DNA of 64,000 nt from the NCBI GenBank assembly GCA_900767955.1, contig CAAGBC010000049.1, positions 14,992-78,991 of the forward strand. Direction: 5' to 3'. The DNA is from Spirochaetia bacterium (GTDB lineage Bacteria > Spirochaetota > Spirochaetia > Treponematales > Treponemataceae). The first letter of the stretch is position 1. Each line of letters begins with the position of its first letter. The translations under genes were made by a program, and so were the position numbers. The notes under the pieces are model-generated. The model saw only the letters and a list, made by a program, of their open reading frames with translations. It did not search any database and was not told where the DNA came from. Shown one piece after another: positions 255 to 45,704 of the stretch.

Positions 255-372
255 GTTGCTTTGGCTACGTTTGTCAATTGAATGAGTAGGCGATAGTCGA
301 TATAACAATGGATTTAGTTTTTCTTAATCAAACTAAAAATAAACAATGATTTTAAAACGAGGAGGAAAAATC

Positions 373-2931
373 ATGAAAAAACTAAAATGTCTTGCCGCGT
401 TTATAATTGTGGCAACATTATTTGGTGGAGTCTTGGGATGTAAACAAGAACCAGAAATCAAGTATGTTGAAGTAGAAAAGCAACCAGATGGCGTTGCTCC
501 TGCTGATGTAACAAATTTAGTTGTTACAAACAAAGACGCAAGTGTTTTACTAACTTGGACAGACGCCACAGACGAAGACATTTACGGCTACGAAGTAAGT
601 TGGAAAACATCTACTGAAAACAGAGCTGCCGCTGCAATGGAATCAAATTCTATAATGGTAGCCCCAGGTGCAAAAGGTTGTTACATTAGCAACTTAACAA
701 ATGGAACAGAATATGCTTTTACAGTAAAATCTGTTGATACAAGCGGAAACAAAAGTGCAGGTGTTACAAAAACAATTACACCAAGCATTATAGAAAAATC
801 ACCACTTGCAATAACTCTTACAGCAAATACAACATCAAAAACAAATCAAAATGTTGTAATTTCTGTAAATGCAACAACAGACAATGCAAGTGAAGTAAAG
901 AAAATTGCTTACAAAGAAGGCACTTTGGCAGATATAGAAAGTGTACTTGCAGGAACAAATATTACAGAAACAAAACAAATTACAGCAACAGAAAATACTA
1001 CATTTACCGTTGCAGTAACAGACACAGCAGGACGCCGTGAACTTGCTTTTGTTACAGTGAATAATATTGATAAAACAGCTCCATCACAAGTTGCAAATGT
1101 CATTCCAATTTATTCAAGAAATAATAACGCAATTAAATTGTCTTGGACAAATCCAGCAGACGAAGATTTTGCAGGAACAGAAATTGTTTATGGCAAAACA
1201 GATAGCGAAGAAACAATAACACTAACTTTTGATAAAAATACAACATCAGCAACAATAAAAAACATTGCTGACGATGATAGTGAATACACAATTGCAATTA
1301 AAACAAAAGATGACCTTGGAAACCTTAGCGAAGCAAAAACAGTTACAGTAGTTGCAGCCACAGGTGCAAAAATTACAAGTGTAAATCTTGATAGAACTCA
1401 CTTAGATTCTATTATGGCAAACCGCAATATTAGCGTAACAATTACCGGAAGTAATTTTGACCTTTTATCAAGTCTTTTGGTACAAGTAACAGATGGCTCA
1501 AAAGCAGAAACCCCAGTAACAGCAACAATCAATAAAGAAACAAATACAGCAACAGCAACAGTTATAGCCCCTGTGCCAGCAAGTCCTACAAACAATGGAA
1601 CAACCTACACTGTAAAAGTAATTGTAGATAGCACAACACCAGCAGAAACAACAGCAGAGTTTGTTGTAAGTTTACCAGCTGATGTAAGATATATTACTTT
1701 AGCACAAACACAAATACCAGTAGGAACAGAAGATAATGTAACAGCTACAATAAAAGGATACAACTTTGATATTCGTGGTGTAACAAAAGTAAAATTACTA
1801 GATTCAAATGGAGATGAAGTAATAGAAAGTACAGTTGAAGTTCCTCTTGAAACAAAAACAAGTGAAACAGAATTTACAGTAGATATTCCTTTACCAACAA
1901 CAGAAGGTGTTTATACAGTTGCAGTATTCTTTGATGATGTAAAAGATACAACTACAACAACACTACAAGTTTACGGAACTCCTATTATTTCTGAAGTTAC
2001 AATTCCTGTTGCAGGAACAAGTTATGGAGGAAATGTATTACCAGTAACAATTAATGGTAAAAATTTTACAGCCCCAGGTGTTACAGCAAGTGGATTTACA
2101 AGCACAGGAGCAACTTTAACTAATGTAACAATTGTAAGTGATACAAAAGTAACAGCAGAAGTAGCTTGCCCTTATGCAGCAGGAACAACAAATGTAACAG
2201 TAAGTTATGGAGATTCTAATACAACAACAACATTAAAAGTAATAGAATCAGTAGCTTCATCTTATGCAGTAGGAGATATTATCTTAACAAATGGCTCAAA
2301 AGTGTCTGTAAATGATGTTGAAACTTATTCACCTGATAACGCAAATAAACCAATAGGTGTAGTTGCAATGATTACTGATGTTTACGGAGTTCCAAACCCA
2401 AAAGTAATAGGCTTACAAAAGTCTGCAAGTGAATTAATGTGGGCACCAGATGATACAACAGGATATAACACAAAGTTTACTAACATAGTTTGTACACCAA
2501 GCAAAAATGGTACAGGTGCAGCATTAACAGCAACTTTTACAGGCGACACAGATGGAAGTGATAATTGGGAAGAAATTTGTGCTGTAGACCCAGAAGGAAC
2601 AGCTGATGCAGCAACAAATTACCCAGCTTTTAATTTTGCAAATACTTATGGAACAACAGCAGGATTAACAGGCACAGATTATGAAAACGGTTGGTATGTA
2701 CCAAGTCTTGCAGAATTATGTGAAGTATACAAAAACAAAGAAGTAATACAAATATCATTAACAAAAGCGAATGGATTTAAAATTGGCACAAGTGCTTACT
2801 GGAGCAGTTCCCAGTTCGCTTCCTACAATGGTGACGCGTACCGAGTGAGTTTCAACGCCGGCTACGTGAGCGGCTTCAGCAAGTACTACAATGTTAATGT
2901 GTTTGTTCTGCAGGCTTTAACAGCAGAGTAA
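373..2931 (+). CDS. tvpA: DGR target: surface lipoprotein (TvpA-like) with tandem Ig/FN3-like repeats and a C-terminal CLec/FGE-type variable domain
   Basis: RBS ggagga 361-366, then ATG at 373 (the ORF track begins 346). Signal peptide MKKLKCLAAFIIVATLFGGVLGC has a lipobox. Thr/Val-rich repeated modules follow. The C-terminal ~40 codons form the VR matched by the TR at 4107-4228. The layout matches the T. denticola TvpA DGR target. Confidence 0.8.
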   Translation: MKKLKCLAAFIIVATLFGGVLGCKQEPEIKYVEVEKQPDGVAPADVTNLVVTNKDASVLLTWTDATDEDIYGYEVSWKTSTENRAAAAMESNSIMVAPGAKGCYISNLTNGTEYAFTVKSVDTSGNKSAGVTKTITPSIIEKSPLAITLTANTTSKTNQNVVISVNATTDNASEVKKIAYKEGTLADIESVLAGTNITETKQITATENTTFTVAVTDTAGRRELAFVTVNNIDKTAPSQVANVIPIYSRNNNAIKLSWTNPADEDFAGTEIVYGKTDSEETITLTFDKNTTSATIKNIADDDSEYTIAIKTKDDLGNLSEAKTVTVVAATGAKITSVNLDRTHLDSIMANRNISVTITGSNFDLLSSLLVQVTDGSKAETPVTATINKETNTATATVIAPVPASPTNNGTTYTVKVIVDSTTPAETTAEFVVSLPADVRYITLAQTQIPVGTEDNVTATIKGYNFDIRGVTKVKLLDSNGDEVIESTVEVPLETKTSETEFTVDIPLPTTEGVYTVAVFFDDVKDTTTTTLQVYGTPIISEVTIPVAGTSYGGNVLPVTINGKNFTAPGVTASGFTSTGATLTNVTIVSDTKVTAEVACPYAAGTTNVTVSYGDSNTTTTLKVIESVASSYAVGDIILTNGSKVSVNDVETYSPDNANKPIGVVAMITDVYGVPNPKVIGLQKSASELMWAPDDTTGYNTKFTNIVCTPSKNGTGAALTATFTGDTDGSDNWEEICAVDPEGTADAATNYPAFNFANTYGTTAGLTGTDYENGWYVPSLAELCEVYKNKEVIQISLTKANGFKIGTSAYWSSSQFASYNGDAYRVSFNAGYVSGFSKYYNVNVFVLQALTAE
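2801..2922 (+). repeat. DGR variable region (VR) within the 3' end of the target gene
   Basis: About 122 bp aligns base-for-base with TR 4107-4228. Roughly 23 of 25 differences fall at TR adenines (A to G, T or C), plus 2 non-A differences. The 3' end gtgtttgttctgcagg is identical in both. Confidence 0.85.
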
Positions 2932-2967: not shown

Positions 2968-3031
2968 TTCATAAAGTAGCGTACGCTACTTTATGAACTC
3001 GGTGGCGTACGCCACCGAAAAAATTTTTTTT
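2968..3031 (+). promoter_or_regulatory. Two tandem perfect hairpins downstream of VR, then A/T tract: candidate DGR target-recognition hairpin/cruciform and transcription stop
   Basis: ttcataaagtagcg/cgctactttatgaa (2968-2997) and ggtggcg/cgccacc (3001-3016) are perfect palindromes sharing the core gcgtacgc. gaaaaaa and T8 follow (3017-3031). Confidence 0.6.
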
Positions 3032-3045
3032 ATGAAAAGAGGATT

Positions 3046-3552
3046 ATGGGTATGAGTAATATTATTGAATTTGAAGATATTGTATCAAAACCTGTAGGTG
3101 TAACTTATGAAAGAGTTCAAACTCTTGGTATATATTGTTTTCAAGCAGAAAAAAAAGAAAGAAATGCTGCATATTTTTTGCCAAGATTATCTTGGAATAA
3201 AAATATTGATTATCTAAAATCAATTTATTCTGATATAGAAAACGAATCAAATTTACAAGGCAAAGGAATTTACACATCTGTTTGGAATATAGAAAAACAT
3301 TATGATAATATTTCATTAAAAAATGCAGATAAACGACTAGAACATGATATGCATACACTAAGTGCTTTTAAGGCATGGGTAAAAGCAGATTCAAATTTAA
3401 GTGAAGATACCGAACTTCAAATATATGTCTTAGCTAGCGAAAGAGTTTTTCCAAAGTATAAATTTACAGAGTTACAAAATACATCTGCTACAATTTATTA
3501 TAATTGGGATGAAATCTTAGAAAAAACACAAATAGAAAGTAAAGGCAACTAA
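3046..3552 (+). CDS. Hypothetical protein (168 aa) encoded between the DGR target and avd; possible extra DGR accessory gene
   Basis: ORF with RBS aaaagagga upstream. No motif recognised. Its stop overlaps the start of the avd-like ORF. Confidence 0.5.
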   Translation: MGMSNIIEFEDIVSKPVGVTYERVQTLGIYCFQAEKKERNAAYFLPRLSWNKNIDYLKSIYSDIENESNLQGKGIYTSVWNIEKHYDNISLKNADKRLEHDMHTLSAFKAWVKADSNLSEDTELQIYVLASERVFPKYKFTELQNTSATIYYNWDEILEKTQIESKGN

Positions 3553-3553
3553 T

Positions 3554-3928
3554 TTGTCCCTTTACTACGATTTACCAGTATTCAAAGATGTCTACAAAAT
3601 GACACTACGCATATTTGAACTTACATCAAATTTTAGTCGTGAATATAAATTTACCTTAGGTCAAGATTTAAAAAGAGATTGTATTTTACTTGTGCGTAGT
3701 ATTTACAGAGCAAATAAATGCAAAGATAAGGTTTTGTATCTTGAACAATTTTTAGACAGCTTTGAAGTTGTAAAATTAGAAATACGGTTATGTAAAGATT
3801 TAAAATTAATTTCTGTAAAACAACAAGCAGAACTTGTTTTACTTACAGAAAATATAGGAAAACAAATTACTGGGTGGCGTAATGCCCAAGATAAAATTGT
3901 GAATAATCGGGCAATGCCTGATAAATAA
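3554..3928 (+). CDS. avd: Avd-like accessory variability determinant (small basic helical protein)
   Basis: 124 aa, Lys/Arg-rich with predicted helical character. Position between target gene and TR matches canonical DGR order. Start is TTG at 3554 or ATG at 3599. Confidence 0.6.
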   Translation: MSLYYDLPVFKDVYKMTLRIFELTSNFSREYKFTLGQDLKRDCILLVRSIYRANKCKDKVLYLEQFLDSFEVVKLEIRLCKDLKLISVKQQAELVLLTENIGKQITGWRNAQDKIVNNRAMPDK

Positions 3929-3947
3929 ATGCCAGAATTTATATTGC
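3907..3947 (+). repeat. 41-bp direct repeat copy 1 (tcgggcaatgcctgataaataaatgccagaatttatattgc), overlapping the avd stop
   Basis: Exact 41/41 match to 5431-5471. Encodes the C-terminal residues of Avd in one frame. Confidence 0.9.
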
Positions 3948-4106
3948 TACGGTGATATAAAGAGAGCGTGCTTTTGTGTAAAAGCGGCAAAGTCTCCTGC
4001 ATCAAAAATAAACCTTAAACCAAGGAATAGGCAGAAATTGCTTTTTGTAGGGATATAGTTTTTATAAAGAATTCTCTTTGTAAAGTATAAGATTTTGCGA
4101 AAATTG

Positions 4107-4228
4107 AAAGCAGTTCCCAGAGAGCTTCCAACAATAATAACGCGTACCAAGTGAATTTCAACGACGGCAACGTGAACAACAACAACAAGAACAACAATAA
4201 TAATGTGTTTGTTCTGCAGGATTTTACA
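4107..4228 (+). repeat. DGR template repeat (TR)
   Basis: Non-coding, adenine-rich copy of the VR (runs of aac/aat). All but about 2 mismatches to VR lie at TR adenines. Flanked by inverted repeats at 3970-3985 and 4222-4236. Confidence 0.85.
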
Positions 4229-4238
4229 CAAAGCTTTT

Positions 4239-4274
4239 GCCACATAAATTGATATTTGTGTGGCGTTTTTTTTT
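4239..4274 (+). terminator. Intrinsic-terminator-like hairpin immediately 3' of TR and 5 nt before the RT start
   Basis: gccacataaat / atttgtgtggc form an 11-bp stem with one G-U pair and loop tgat, followed by T9 (4266-4274). Confidence 0.55.
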
Positions 4275-4279
4275 AGATT

Positions 4280-5446
4280 ATGGATTTAACATTAGAAGAA
4301 GTTTTTGAAGCCTATTATGAATGTCGAAAAACTAAAAGATATTCAAATGGGGCTTTACAATTTGAACTTAATTTAGAAGAAAATTTAATTCAATTATATT
4401 CTCAATTAATAACTCAAGAATGGCAACCTGGAAAATCAACTTGTTTTATAGTAACAAGACCAGTTCGTCGTGAAATTTTTGCAGCTCCATTTAGAGACCG
4501 AATTGTTCATCATATTTTAATTCGCAGACTTAATTCTACATTTGAAAAATATTTTATTTATGATAGTTATGCATGTCGCAAGCAAAAAGGAACTCATGCC
4601 GCAATAAAAAGGGTTGAGCATTTTATAAAAAGTCAATTAAACAATGGAAAATCAAATGTCTATGTCTTAAAACTTGATATAAAAGGTTTTTTTATGAATA
4701 TTGATAAAAATCTTTTATGGCAAAAGTTGGAAAAATTTATAGATATAAATTACAAAACTGATTCAGTAGATTTTGAAAAATATTTATGTAAACAAATCAT
4801 TTTTAACGACCCAACAAAAAATTGTATGATTCGAAGTCCTTTGTATGAATGGAAGGAACTGCCAAAAGATAAAAGTTTGTTTACAACAAAAGAAAATTGC
4901 GGACTTCCAATTGGAAATTTAACAAGCCAAGTTTTTGCAAACTTTTTTCTATCAGAATTTGATCATTTTATAAAACATACGTTAAAAGTAAAATGTTATG
5001 TGCGTTATGTTGATGATTGTGTTATTATTCATAAAAATAAAGATTTTCTAAAATATATTATAAAAAAGGCTAAAAATTTTTTAGAACAAAAATTAAACCT
5101 TACACTTCATCCAAAAAAAATATATTTGCAATTAGCTCAAAATGGAGTAGCGTTTTTGGGAACTTTTATAAAACCAAATTACACAGTTTGTAGTCATCGT
5201 GTAAAAAATAATTTTGTAGAATCTCTTAAGAAATATGCAACTCTTGCAAATAATCATAAATTATCAAAAGAAGAAAAACAAAATTGTCTTTCTAGCGTAA
5301 ATTCTTATCTTGGAATTATGAGTCATTACAAAACATATAATTTTAGAAAAAAACAAATTTTACGTTATTTTGAAAAATGGCTTAAGAAAAGTTATTGTAT
5401 TCCAGAAAATTGCAAAAAAATAATGAATAAATCGGGCAATGCCTGA
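4280..5446 (+). CDS. DGR reverse transcriptase
   Basis: RT motifs present, including the DGR-specific LPIGNLTSQVFANFF (I/LGxxxSQ in place of the group II QGxxxSP) and YVRYVDDCVII (YxDD). Sits directly downstream of the TR. Confidence 0.9.
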   Translation: MDLTLEEVFEAYYECRKTKRYSNGALQFELNLEENLIQLYSQLITQEWQPGKSTCFIVTRPVRREIFAAPFRDRIVHHILIRRLNSTFEKYFIYDSYACRKQKGTHAAIKRVEHFIKSQLNNGKSNVYVLKLDIKGFFMNIDKNLLWQKLEKFIDINYKTDSVDFEKYLCKQIIFNDPTKNCMIRSPLYEWKELPKDKSLFTTKENCGLPIGNLTSQVFANFFLSEFDHFIKHTLKVKCYVRYVDDCVIIHKNKDFLKYIIKKAKNFLEQKLNLTLHPKKIYLQLAQNGVAFLGTFIKPNYTVCSHRVKNNFVESLKKYATLANNHKLSKEEKQNCLSSVNSYLGIMSHYKTYNFRKKQILRYFEKWLKKSYCIPENCKKIMNKSGNA

Positions 5447-5471
5447 TAAATAAATGCCAGAATTTATATTG
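5431..5471 (+). repeat. 41-bp direct repeat copy 2, overlapping the RT stop
   Basis: Exact match to 3907-3947. Encodes the RT C-terminus (KSGNA*) in a different frame from copy 1. Confidence 0.9.
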
Positions 5472-5643
5472 CACATGTCAGGAAATTAAAAAAAATAGTT
5501 ATTCGTTAGAAATTTTTTTTGTTTATGTGTAAACAATTCTGAATTGCACAAAGGATTGTAGCCACTTGTAAAATGGAAAACGCGTTAAGAAAAATTGTGA
5601 TTAGCAATTTTTTAGTGTTTTCTATTTTATGAAGCGCTTTGAC

Positions 5644-5676
5644 GCGGAATGGCGAAAAGCCTGGTTTTTGCGGTAG
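5644..5676 (+). promoter_or_regulatory. Conserved ~30-nt leader motif, copy 1 (gacgcggaatggcgaaaagcctggtttttgcgg)
   Basis: About 27/31 identical to 39205-39234. Both copies lie 50-110 nt upstream of plus-strand genes. Confidence 0.5.
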
Positions 5677-5699
5677 TAAAAATGTGCCCAAATTATTAA

Positions 5700-8600
5700 T
5701 TGATTGTTAAAAATTTTGTTATGATGGCTTTTTATTTTATCTTCAATTGCTTTATAAAAAATATGGTGTATAATAGAAACAATATGGATATCTCTAATAA
5801 ACTTGAAATTGCAAAAAAATTTATTGAAACATCTAAAAAAAATCTTTGCTTTATTGTAGCTGATAGTCTTGTTTCTCAATGTATTGCAGAAGATATGAAG
5901 GATTCTTACCAAATTATTGATTTGGCAGAAGATTTTACACCTTTTAAGCCTTTTTTGAATTTATTATCCAAAGGTAATCTTCCTGAAAAAAATGTTAGAG
6001 AAAAAACTTATTCCATTCAAACTGAATCTTTTGTTTCATTTTTTAAAACTGGAATGGCAGAAGAACGTTATGATATTCCAATTGATAACGAAGAATTATA
6101 TGAAATAAATCAGTATGTAAAATCAATTGTCGTACTTTTTAAAGAACTTCCTGTTAAAAATTATATTTTTACAAATGCACAAAATATTTTCTCTGATTCA
6201 TTTGCTGTAATTAAAGAATTAGAAAATCATGAATTAGCAAGTAAATTTGTTTTTTGTTTTAATGCTGATGTTACAAATCCTTCTGTTGAAGTTTTAGATT
6301 TTTTGGAAAAAAATACAGAATCAGAAAACTTTATGTATCTTCAAGCTCAGTCTACTACTGCAAATACAGCTCTTGCTTTTGAAAATGAAGAATCTGAAAA
6401 TTTATTGAATGTAAGTCAAGAATTTAAAGAAACAATGATGAATAATTTTGATTTTGTATTTTCATTGTTGCGTAATAATCGTTTGTTTATGTCGTTCAAG
6501 CAGTTGAAAATCTTGATAGCGTGGGTTTCTAAGAATTTTCCTAATATGAATTATTCTGTTTATCAAAAGCGAACCTTGCTTCATGAACTTGCAATTGATT
6601 GTTATGTATGTAAATTGGAAGACGAATCAATTCTTCATTTTAATGATATTATTGAAACTCTTCCTGATGATGATTTTGCACTTTCAGCAGCATATTATTT
6701 AGCTAGAATTTTCTATCTAAAAAAATCTGGTGAATTTGCAAAAAAATATGCTCTTCAAGTTTGGCAACAATTAAACGGAAATGAAGAAAATCCTTATTAT
6801 GCACTTTTGTCTATGTTGGAATTTCAGTTTGTAAAACGCTCCGATGCAAATATTGCAAAAGGAAAGTATATAGAAGCGTTGAAGCAGCTTGAAGCTCACG
6901 GATTTGTAAATAATTATATTGCAACAGGTTTGACTATTCCTTGGAATTTGATTAATACTCCAGATTCTAGACCTCTTATTGAAGATACAATTGATAACTG
7001 TATGCGTATGGCAAAAAAATACGGAAATAATCATTTGTATTCTACTGCTTGCCATTGGAAAGGAATTATTGCTTCTCATTACGGTGAACGCGATGTTGCA
7101 ATGAAATGGTATAACGATTGTAATAAAATACGAACAGAAATTGGAGAAATTGGTCCTCTTATGAATATTCGTAATGGCCTTTCTTATGAATCTTTGTGTC
7201 GTGCTTTATATAAAGATGCTTATGATTTAGTAAATGGAGTTATAAGCAATATTTATAATTTAAACGATTATTCCAGAATTGTAGACTGCTTAAAAAATAT
7301 AAGTTATGCACTTTTTTATGCTCGCCACTATGACATTGCTCATGAAATTTTTTCTTTGTTGTTGCATTTTCTTAGACTTTTTAATATGGAAGAGCAGGCT
7401 TATAATTCATTCTTGCCATCAAGAAGTGATATTTTAATATTGAAGACAATTATTGATTTGGATAGAAAAGATGTAATTCATGCAACTATCAATTTCAATC
7501 AAATTGAATCAACAGTAAATTCTGTTACAATGGAAGAAAAACCTTTAATTCCTTTTATTCGTGCAATTTTGTTAGCAAATGATTCTATGTTTGAAGAATC
7601 TGAAAAAGCTGTTGAATTGTGTGTTCAGGAATTTAAGAAAATTAAAAGTAATCAAACCCACAAAATATGTTTCGTTTATTTTGAATATGCAGTTTTATTA
7701 AAAAGATTAAATCAAATGGAACTTTCTCAGAAATATCTTGATTTAGGATATAATCTTGCAAAAGAAAATAATTTTGCATATTACACAAAAAATAAAGATA
7801 GCGTTTCTGTTGAAGATTATTTAAATGGTTATGAAAAATACGATGAATTAAATATTAATTTGGCTTTCCTTTTAGAAAAAGCAGAAAAGGAAAATCTATT
7901 AACTCAACTTCATAAACGAATTCACGATTACCAATTCTTGAATAAAGTAAAAACAAATAACTTAAGATCTTCTAATCTTAAGAAGTATATTGAAAACACT
8001 GTTTTGTATATTTATGAATATTGTTTTGCAGAATCTGTATTTATTGGTGAACTAACAGACGAAGGAGCAGGAACTCTTTATTCTATTAGTCGTGGAAAAT
8101 CTGTAAATATTTCTTCACAAAAGTGGAAGAAGTTGTTCAAAGAATCTACAAATAAAGAAGTTACTCAATTTGTTTATAAAGAAAAGCAACAACTGTTTTT
8201 TGGTAATATGACTCAATTTGAGTATAAGTTTGGAATTGTTATTATTCCTACTGAACAAAATCCATTTACTAACGAAAGTATTAATACTTTGAATATTGCG
8301 CTTTCTACTATTCAATCACAAATTGTTATTTATAAACAAGATGAAAATCTATTGTTCCTTTCTACAACAGATACTCTTTCATTGTTGAATAATAGACATG
8401 CTTTACAGAAACAACTTCTTGTTGAAGGTGATAGAATTCGTCGTTATGCAAAGCGTAAGTCAACAAAAATTCAAGTTTCTATTGCGTTTATGGATTTGGA
8501 CAACTTTAAATATTATAACGATACATTCGGACATAATGCTGGGGACTTGTTTATTACTTGTTTTGCAAAACTTCTTAAAAATACTTGTCGCCAAGTTGAC

Positions 8601-45244: not shown

Positions 45245-45613
45245 GGGGATGTACAGGTTTCGACGGTTGTGGGAACCCCTGTGCTGCAGGTGAGTGTGAA
45301 GGTGCTCTGAACTGACAAAAAAATAACTGCAAAACGTAAAGAAGACGAAATGTCTGAAAACGAACAGTTCGCTCTTGCTGCGTAAGTAGCTGAGCCAGAA
45401 CTCTTGCTATGCTGTTCCGAAGAGTAGGAAGTTCTGACGCCAACCGGGACTTGGTGTATATTGTTTCTAGCCAATATATACGACATTTAGTTAGAATACG
45501 GAAGAGACGCTTGTAATGCTGCTACCTGTTCCCGACAATTACCTCGCATTACTAAACTTGTAGATGTACTTGGATTACACTTTCGGACGGGAGTTCGATT
45601 CTCCCCATCTCCA
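45245..45613 (+). ncRNA. ssrA: tmRNA (SsrA)
   Basis: 5' ggggatgtacaggtttcgacgg. 3' tRNA-like domain ggacgggagttcgattctccc with acceptor strand catctcc+a. Internal tag reading frame ends ...gaaaacgaacagttcgctcttgctgcgtaa, giving tag ...ENEQFALAA*. Confidence 0.9.
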
Positions 45614-45704
45614 AAAACTTGTCTTTGTCTGGTTATTGAAGATTTAAGACAAGTTTTTTTTTATTAACATTGAAATTACTATTTAGAAATAGTAAATTAT
45701 AATT

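Follow-up and report, generated by a model that had tools for sequence, protein, structure and literature searches.

The locus described here raises the question of why the 3′ end of an accessory gene of a diversity-generating retroelement (DGR) should recur, letter for letter, at the end of the reverse transcriptase (RT) gene of the same element. The element lies in a stretch of 64,000 nucleotides from a Spirochaetia bacterium of the Treponemataceae (assembly GCA_900767955.1, contig CAAGBC010000049.1, positions 14,992 to 78,991 of the forward strand), which is referred to below as a whole as the window. It consists of a target gene with a variable repeat (VR), the accessory gene avd, a template repeat (TR) and the RT gene. 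From a sequence-only reading of the window it had been proposed that a perfect direct repeat brackets TR and RT and could mark a mobile cassette, serve as a site for switching diversification on and off, or act as a shared 3′ RNA element. The comparative analysis reported here leads us to a partly different answer, namely that the RT-side copy is probably what remains of a tandem duplication mediated by microhomology, and that it incidentally supplies the RT with its stop codon and renders the TR-RT segment deletable.

The repeat had been described as 41 bp long. Two exact copies of this 41-mer are indeed present, and only these two are found in the window even when up to three mismatches are allowed; the first is at 3907-3947, as reported, whereas the second is at 5432-5472 and not at 5431-5471. 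The maximal perfect direct repeat extends to 43 bp (3905-3947 and 5430-5472, hereafter R1, the avd-side copy, and R2, the RT-side copy), with a start-to-start spacing of 1525 bp. If a single 1-nt indel is allowed (TGAAT-AATCGGG against TGAATAAATCGGG), the repeat gains about 5 nt on its 5′ side and reaches ~48 bp, and when the avd allele of other strains (…AAAAAATAGTGAATAA…) is used for the comparison, its length is ~60 nt. On its right, spacer-side flank, R2 continues as ACATGTCAGG. A match to the 41-mer was obtained in 0 of 100 dinucleotide-preserving shuffles, in agreement with the original assertion that the identity is not due to chance. Furthermore, 22 distinct contigs of the same species carry both copies; they come from independent assemblies (MEGAHIT, SPAdes and scaffolds), and the repeat is therefore not an assembly artefact. 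Thus, the 43-bp repeat is real and statistically secure. It also holds the stop codons of both genes in two different frames, exactly as had been noticed: the repeat starts in frame 0 in avd and in frame 1 in the RT gene, the avd TAA is at 3926-3928 and the RT TGA at 5444-5446, and the proteins accordingly end in …KIVNNRAMPDK* (Avd) and …KIMNKSGNA* (RT).

The locus bracketed in this manner, with TR and RT between the copies, is a standard, active DGR. The RT has more than 5000 homologues, the closest of which adjoin bAvd genes and TR/VR pairs. Over the 124 aligned nucleotides, 23 of the 26 differences between TR and VR fall on TR adenines, and among some 20 contigs of the same species the TR is constant while the VR differs in almost every strain. 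This combination of a constant template, a variable target and adenine-specific differences indicates that the DGR is active in nature.

To establish which of the two copies is the original one, we rely on the comparison of about 60 related contigs collected by exact-protein lookups and homologue searches (L numbers denote related contigs or loci, and P numbers RT clusters). All lineages with this type of avd have R1 at the end of that gene, including lineages without an RT-side copy, namely L033-L042 (RT cluster P0002, 85% amino acid identity), L047 (P0004, 86%) and L061-L066 (P0242, ~92% nucleotide identity). Moreover, the 3′ half of R1 (GCC.GAATTTATATTGC) opens a leader that is conserved even in L001 and L044, the RTs of which are 80-81% identical to that of the window. 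R2, by contrast, accompanies only the window-type RT (22 of the 22 same-species contigs that span both sites) and the RT of L059; it was not detected at the RT ends of five sister RT lineages (L001, L042/L043, L044/L045, L047 and L061-L066), and the RT clusters without it (P0002, P0004, P0005, P0007 and P0242) are 80-92% identical to the window RT. The homology between the window and L001 stops at 5431, where the RT-side copy starts. Given that the RT tails of homologues vary freely after …NCKKI (IK*, IKR*, IKKT*, VYL*, LLNRKGL*), the captured tail is unconstrained. Thus, the presence of R1 at avd ends that have no partner, its continuity with the conserved leader and the restricted distribution of R2 together imply that R1, on the avd side, is native and original, whereas R2, on the RT side, is derived, having been added later in place of an RT tail that was under no constraint. 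Two deviations concern the avd-side copy itself: the seeming lack of R1 in L027 is due to a run of N inside the repeat, and in L061-L066 (P0242) a hairpin-rich insertion of ~70 nt (5590-5660 in these contigs) splits the avd-side repeat between TTTATA and TATTGC, equivalent to window 3942/3943.

The nature of the addition becomes clearer from L059, a 249-kb contig with a different chromosomal neighborhood in which the RT shows 91.5% nucleotide identity to that of the window. There, the RT ends in …NCKKIVNNRSMPDK (…KIVNNRSMPDK), that is, in the Avd tail read in the Avd frame, and the RT-side copy comprises ~115 nt, in which avd tail, repeat and leader follow one another co-linearly up to a point ~35 nt short of where a TR would begin. 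Judged from its sequence, this copy looks like the start of a second unit made up of avd 3′ end, leader, TR and RT. L059 and the window share the position of the junction (…AAAAT(TG/AA)T|GAATAA…), and relative to the state in L059 the window has one extra A, which changes AATAATCGG to AATAAATCGG. Because the RT of L059 uses the Avd frame and the window has gained this nucleotide, the reading of one segment in two frames is a secondary accident and not a design; the earlier observation that one DNA segment supplies the C-termini of two proteins is thus accurate, but the arrangement is incidental.

With respect to the route by which the copy arose, we are fairly confident that it is a duplication scar, if a tandem duplication and a one-step insertion of a short patch are taken jointly. 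For the tandem route that we favor, we infer the following sequence of events. The starting point would have been an illegitimate recombination event in an ancestor of this gut spirochaete, which is Treponema-like. A short, A-rich microhomology at the RT 3′ end (…AAAAAAAT(TG/AA)T) would have been joined to a second one, located at the avd 3′ end (…A(A/T)AAAAT(T/A)GT). The unit consisting of avd 3′ end, leader, TR and RT would thereby have been duplicated in tandem, such that the avd tail came to lie right after the coding end of the RT. Most of the second unit would later have been deleted, so that only 43-48 nt are left in the lineage of the window and ~115 nt in that of L059, and both open reading frames (ORFs) would then run into the AT-rich segment up to its first stop codon. 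The RT would at first have been in the Avd frame, and the window lineage would subsequently have undergone the frame shift through the gain of one A. L061, which has no duplication, carries the same 10-nt string AAAAAATTGT at the avd end and at the RT end, a ready substrate for unequal, microhomology-mediated exchange.

Once in place, the two copies would be expected to recombine with each other, either through RecA-dependent exchange or through replication slippage, which would remove TR and RT but spare avd and the target gene; by unequal exchange between them, the TR-RT unit would be duplicated anew. A contig with the sequence expected of such a deletion exists. L040, an 874-bp metagenomic contig assembled with MEGAHIT and originating from SRR2250556, is identical to window 3382-3947 and then passes through a single repeat copy into 5473-5780, and is thus the exact expected product of recombination between the copies, with avd intact and TR and RT gone. 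The search among relatives for an allele lacking the cassette, which the sequence-only reading had proposed, therefore yielded the predicted junction with avd joined to downstream DNA, albeit in one short and possibly chimeric contig with no second case. Likewise, of the suggested on/off switch, the deletion site is to be expected on mechanistic grounds and L040 has the predicted junction, but deletion would be a one-way loss and not a reversible switch.

An independent form of inactivation at the same locus involves another short repeat. In eight contigs from different samples, a deletion of ~230 nt joins the TR to RT codon ~46 at the 9-nt microhomology AATGGCAAC. This deletion (equivalent to window 4184-4413; L227, L228, L230-L233 and L235) removes the 3′ end of the TR, the hairpin that follows it and the first ~45 RT codons, and leaves an RT fragment of 250 amino acids (cluster P0021). 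It is a dead-DGR allele that segregates in the population, and there is clear evidence that this DGR is inactivated through repeats and that such inactivation spreads.

Several observations weigh against the tandem duplication and the deletion activity that we ascribe to its remnant. None of the contigs carries an intact second unit, the intermediate through which the tandem route would have passed. The 43-bp remnant requires a second deletion with its left end in the loop of a hairpin (3947/3948), and a one-step templated patch fits equally well. In addition, derived states are common to the two copies of L059 (CGCTC, a G at the equivalent of 3943 and the same 67-nt deletion in the leader), which means either that the copies are homogenized with one another or that there were two duplications at one and the same microhomology. 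Whichever applies, the history is not as simple as one ancient event would be, and recombination of these sequences is implied. As for L040, it is a lone short contig, probably of low coverage, that may be a chimera of the de Bruijn graph, so that it is only suggestive of a real deletion allele. Lookups with the 137-aa avd allele and with the accessory ORF, which showed 20 contexts, found no second contig without the cassette; in these lookups and in one with the exact GGDEF protein, all loci shown were full-length or carried other deletions.

The one-step patch deserves consideration at this point. A stalled fork or a break at the RT 3′ end could have been followed by a microhomology-guided template switch to the avd end, copying of 45-120 nt and a switch back, in which case a full tandem duplication would never have existed; the outcome, a direct repeat that can serve as a deletion substrate, would be unchanged. 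The small size of all known patches (43-48 nt in the window, ~115 nt in L059 and ~75 nt in L005, a locus discussed below) speaks for such a mechanism, as do the right edge of R2, which coincides precisely with the loop of the 3938-3961 hairpin, a plausible switch point, and the presence of a second TR or RT copy in 0 of 149 surveyed loci. Nevertheless, patches of different lengths with the same left junction in two sister lineages are more naturally explained by progressive trimming, and we regard the one-step patch as rather unlikely even though the data are equally compatible with the two routes.

We compared the 2.5 kb upstream of the RT with the region of the RT 3′ end in 149 evaluable DGR loci from genomes, metagenomes and viral contigs. 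Significant direct repeats shared by the upstream and downstream regions were detected in 6 of the 149 loci, compared with 0 of 149 in the control, in which the upstream region was compared with the RT interior. L005, a Bacteroidetes locus with a 50% identical RT, is the sole avd-derived case among the six. Its RT tail GKSQLLQNARENIEVVRLLLS* copies the Avd residues DKSQLLQNARENIEVVRLLF in frame, with 83% nucleotide identity over 63 nt (sites 970-1045 and 2987-3060), such that the last 20 residues of the RT correspond to an internal helix segment of Avd. This is an independent avd-to-RT-end duplication. The other five repeats are not derived from avd: that of L118 is a duplicate of a HigA-like gene, L134 has a repeated coding sequence, L095 a REP-like array, and L098 and L008 show matches of 17-19 nt. 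The L118 repeat, a direct repeat of 163 nt with 91% identity (1381-1543 and 5048-5209), apparently coding sequence of a HigA-like antitoxin, flanks the DGR RT region of that locus. Thus, avd-derived patches at RT ends are recurrent but rare (~1-2% of loci) and do not constitute a general feature of DGRs.

An alternative to a scar is that the repeat is a cis-acting element used twice, for instance as a promoter or 5′ element of the TR RNA that, in its RT-side copy, drives or regulates the downstream GGDEF gene, or as an RNA hairpin that is bound or processed at both sites. A match resembling a sigma-70 promoter (CTGATA-16 nt-TATATT) lies inside both copies; it reaches only 9 of 12 positions, and 28 matches of this kind were obtained in the region, where chance would give 16.5. 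TATATT is conserved in L001 and L044, as is the leader that immediately follows it, but the −35 part is not, and L061-L066 tolerate the 70-nt insertion within the putative −10 element. At the RNA level, two small hairpins are predicted for the 43-mer (−10.7 kcal/mol, z = −2.05), and the last 10 nt of R1 form the 5′ arm of the leader hairpin at 3938-3961 (z = −3.0), whereas R2 lacks the downstream partner required for this hairpin. In phage BPP-1, retrohoming at its full level depends on ~300 nt upstream of the TR (PMC6182149), so that R1 is probably located in functional RNA or DNA, and R2 is invariant in 22 contigs; such invariance is, in fact, what strains with 97% identity show anyway, and five sister lineages work without the RT-side copy. 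The avd-side copy may therefore belong to the functional TR RNA or to its promoter, which would give the RT-side copy no role, and we consider a shared function of both copies distinctly improbable. The more specific proposal of a common terminator, processing site or other 3′ RNA element is not supported: neither copy has a U-tract or a terminator call, the modest hairpin being followed by AAAUAAAU, the element is not conserved at the RT ends of five sister lineages, and an Rfam search with permissive E-values over 3500-5900 returned chance-level matches only.

A further possibility is that the copies are attachment sites, att-like or Xer/dif-like, with TR and RT forming an excisable and transferable cassette of which L040 would represent the empty site. 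The perfect identity of the direct repeats, their att-like length, two internal imperfect palindromes (ATCGGGC-AAT-GCCTGAT and ATAAAT-GCCAGA-ATTTAT), the precise empty-site-like junction of L040 and the greater likeness of copies within a genome than between genomes, in both the window lineage and L059, would all be compatible with such sites. In contrast, no gene for an integrase or recombinase was found in the unit or within ±5-6 kb in the contexts examined, only TR and RT lying between the repeats; the length varies from 43 nt in the window to ~115 nt in L059, following the avd-leader homology with no fixed core; the RT-side copy is missing in five lineages; and observed exchanges of modules break elsewhere. 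We accordingly give the attachment-site explanation hardly any credence. A 36-mer of the repeat has no match among 241 million JGI metagenome records or in IMG/VR, which also argues against a dispersed site. This result, together with the lack of a third copy in the window and the occurrence of the repeat only at the avd end or the RT end across all related contigs, speaks against a dispersed multi-copy element of the REP or MITE kind, the finding that the sequence-only reading had named as contrary to its proposals.

The exchanges of modules mentioned above bear directly on the proposal that the repeat marks the ends of a TR-RT cassette moved by recombination. The breakpoints of inter-strain mosaics lie at the avd start (~3538) and at the RT start (4279-4289) and not at the repeat, and, like the five sister RT lineages that lack the RT-side copy, they lend this proposal no support. 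In L033, L034, L035, L037, L042, L059 and L060, a cassette of two genes (DUF4160 and DUF2442) separates the TR hairpin from the RT start; it is inserted at the equivalent of window 4279-4289 and is flanked by a duplication of ~10 nt (TATGGATTTAA); L059 additionally has a DUF2281/PIN pair and a broken avd. The RT behind the DUF4160/DUF2442 cassette is 85% identical at the nucleotide level compared with 98% for the avd-TR portion, which shows that the locus is a mosaic. A bolder version of the recombination scenario can also be envisaged, in which TR-RT is recurrently excised, perhaps as a circle that re-enters other genomes at the avd-end copy, and the repeat is a selected device acting at the population level and not a passive scar. 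If this were the case, lineages could switch hypermutation of a surface protein off and, by transfer, on, and the concerted evolution of the copies would be its footprint; we assign very little probability to this scenario. Logan contigs L029-L031 (~1547 bp), considered as candidates for excised circular or tandem units, have ends (3913, an A/G single-nucleotide polymorphism, and 5459) that fit unitig breaks at k = 31 and are uninformative on circles.

The features of the locus are listed in the following table.

Coordinates of the DGR, the two repeat copies and adjoining features in the window
Feature	Position	Strand	Basis or remark
Target gene	346-2931	+	VR at its 3′ end
VR	2803-2926	+	TR/VR comparison
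168-aa ORF between target and avd	3046-3552		no Pfam or PHROG match
avd, DGR accessory gene, 124 aa	3554-3928	+	Pfam bAvd PF22296, E = 4.2e-18, above the curated cutoff
R1, avd-side copy	3905-3947	+	last 8 codons and stop of avd, then first 19 nt of the avd-TR intergenic leader
Conserved avd-TR leader	3948-4108	+	~160 nt; 82% identity to L001 from 3930 on
TR	4109-4232	+	adenine-specific differences from VR
Terminator-like hairpin and T-run between TR and RT	4238-4275 (hairpin 4238-4265)	+	12-pair stem, then TTTTTTTTT
DGR RT, 388 aa	4280-5446	+	Pfam RVT_1, E = 8.8e-22
R2, RT-side copy	5430-5472	+	last 5 codons and stop of RT; with a 1-nt indel, similarity from ~5424
Spacer between R2 and the conserved post-RT element, 100 nt	5473-5572	+	no similar sequence elsewhere in the window or in other lineages
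Conserved post-RT element	5573-5680	+	also follows RT in another chromosomal setting (L044, L045, L067)

Some of these features deserve comment. The promoter region of the target gene contains a (TCAA)9 microsatellite at 117-152, directly upstream of a perfect TATAAT; the copy number ranges from 6 to 24 across same-species contigs and is 15 in L059, and the repeat may modulate or phase-vary expression of the diversified protein. With regard to a variable domain of the C-type-lectin type in this protein, residues 756-851 show only a sub-threshold match to Lcl_C (22 bits against a cutoff of 34.9). The 168-aa ORF is present in window-type alleles and in some alleles with a 741-aa target, and is lacking in others, such as L022. 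The length of the TR is strain-dependent (L049, TR 103 nt against VR 112; L057, TR 112 nt against VR 115), and L054 has an identical 3-nt deletion in TR and VR, which are 109 nt each. The strong terminator-like hairpin with its T9 run precedes the RT start codon, and expression of the RT would thus need a promoter of its own or read-through. Downstream of R2, the 100-nt spacer shows no similarity to the RT, the leader, the rest of the window or other lineages, and it is lacking in L044, in which the post-RT element directly follows the RT stop. This element (…TTCTATTTTATGAAGCGCTTTGACGCGGAA…GAAAAGCC), which is preceded by an inverted repeat and has no Rfam match, may belong to the DGR unit; the next gene in L044, L045 and L067 encodes a TPR protein and not a GGDEF protein. 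Elsewhere in the window, a full-length tmRNA gene occupies 45245-45616 (Rfam RF00023, 120 bits).

In its overall organization, the element conforms to the canonical avd-TR-RT type of DGR represented by Bordetella phage BPP-1, with respect to gene order (target with a C-terminal VR, avd, TR, RT), the adenine-specific differences between TR and VR and the bAvd family of its Avd protein (for a survey of DGR architectures, see Wu et al., 2018, PMC5758913). Conserved sequence upstream of the TR at the avd end likewise matches the need of BPP-1 for avd-proximal sequence (PMC6182149). Unlike the BPP-1 type, the present element has a copy of the avd 3′ end after the RT, a TR-RT spacer of ~50 nt with a terminator-like hairpin, and the additional family-less ORF between target and avd. 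A search of the DGR literature for direct repeats, duplications and deletions in cassettes revealed no description of an avd-end copy after the RT.

Short direct repeats in bacterial genomes are subject to RecA-dependent and slipped-strand deletion, and some are remnants of tandem duplications. The present case resembles such remnants in that direct repeats of tens of base pairs surround a dispensable segment and the junction shows microhomology, and, should the single contig L040 not be a chimera, also in having a precise one-copy product; it further resembles direct-repeat deletion systems in that a second deletion, at the 9-nt microhomology, segregates at this very locus. It differs from generic deletion repeats in that exactly the mutagenic parts, TR and RT, are bracketed while avd and the target ORF are spared, and loss of TR-RT would consequently freeze the variable protein undamaged. 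The likeness to attL/attR of integrative elements or to Xer modules (perfect direct repeats of comparable length, a discrete unit and an empty-site-like sequence) is offset by the lack of a recombinase, the variable length that follows local homology, the absence from sister lineages and the lack of any context other than a DGR. The rearrangement is of a commonplace kind, as is the DGR that it affects, and it reveals no new mechanism.

For the biology of DGRs, the implication, small but concrete, is that the mutagenic core (TR and RT) of an active gut-spirochaete DGR would be deletion-prone by virtue of its flanking repeats, with the microhomology-mediated deletion in TR and RT as at least one other loss allele, which is already common in the same population. 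For the annotation of DGRs in general, Avd-like tails on RTs, as in the window, L059 and L005, are better understood as rearrangement scars than as domains. Furthermore, with this locus nature provides a system in which to study the frequency at which bacteria discard an active machinery of hypermutation and yet keep the protein that it has diversified.

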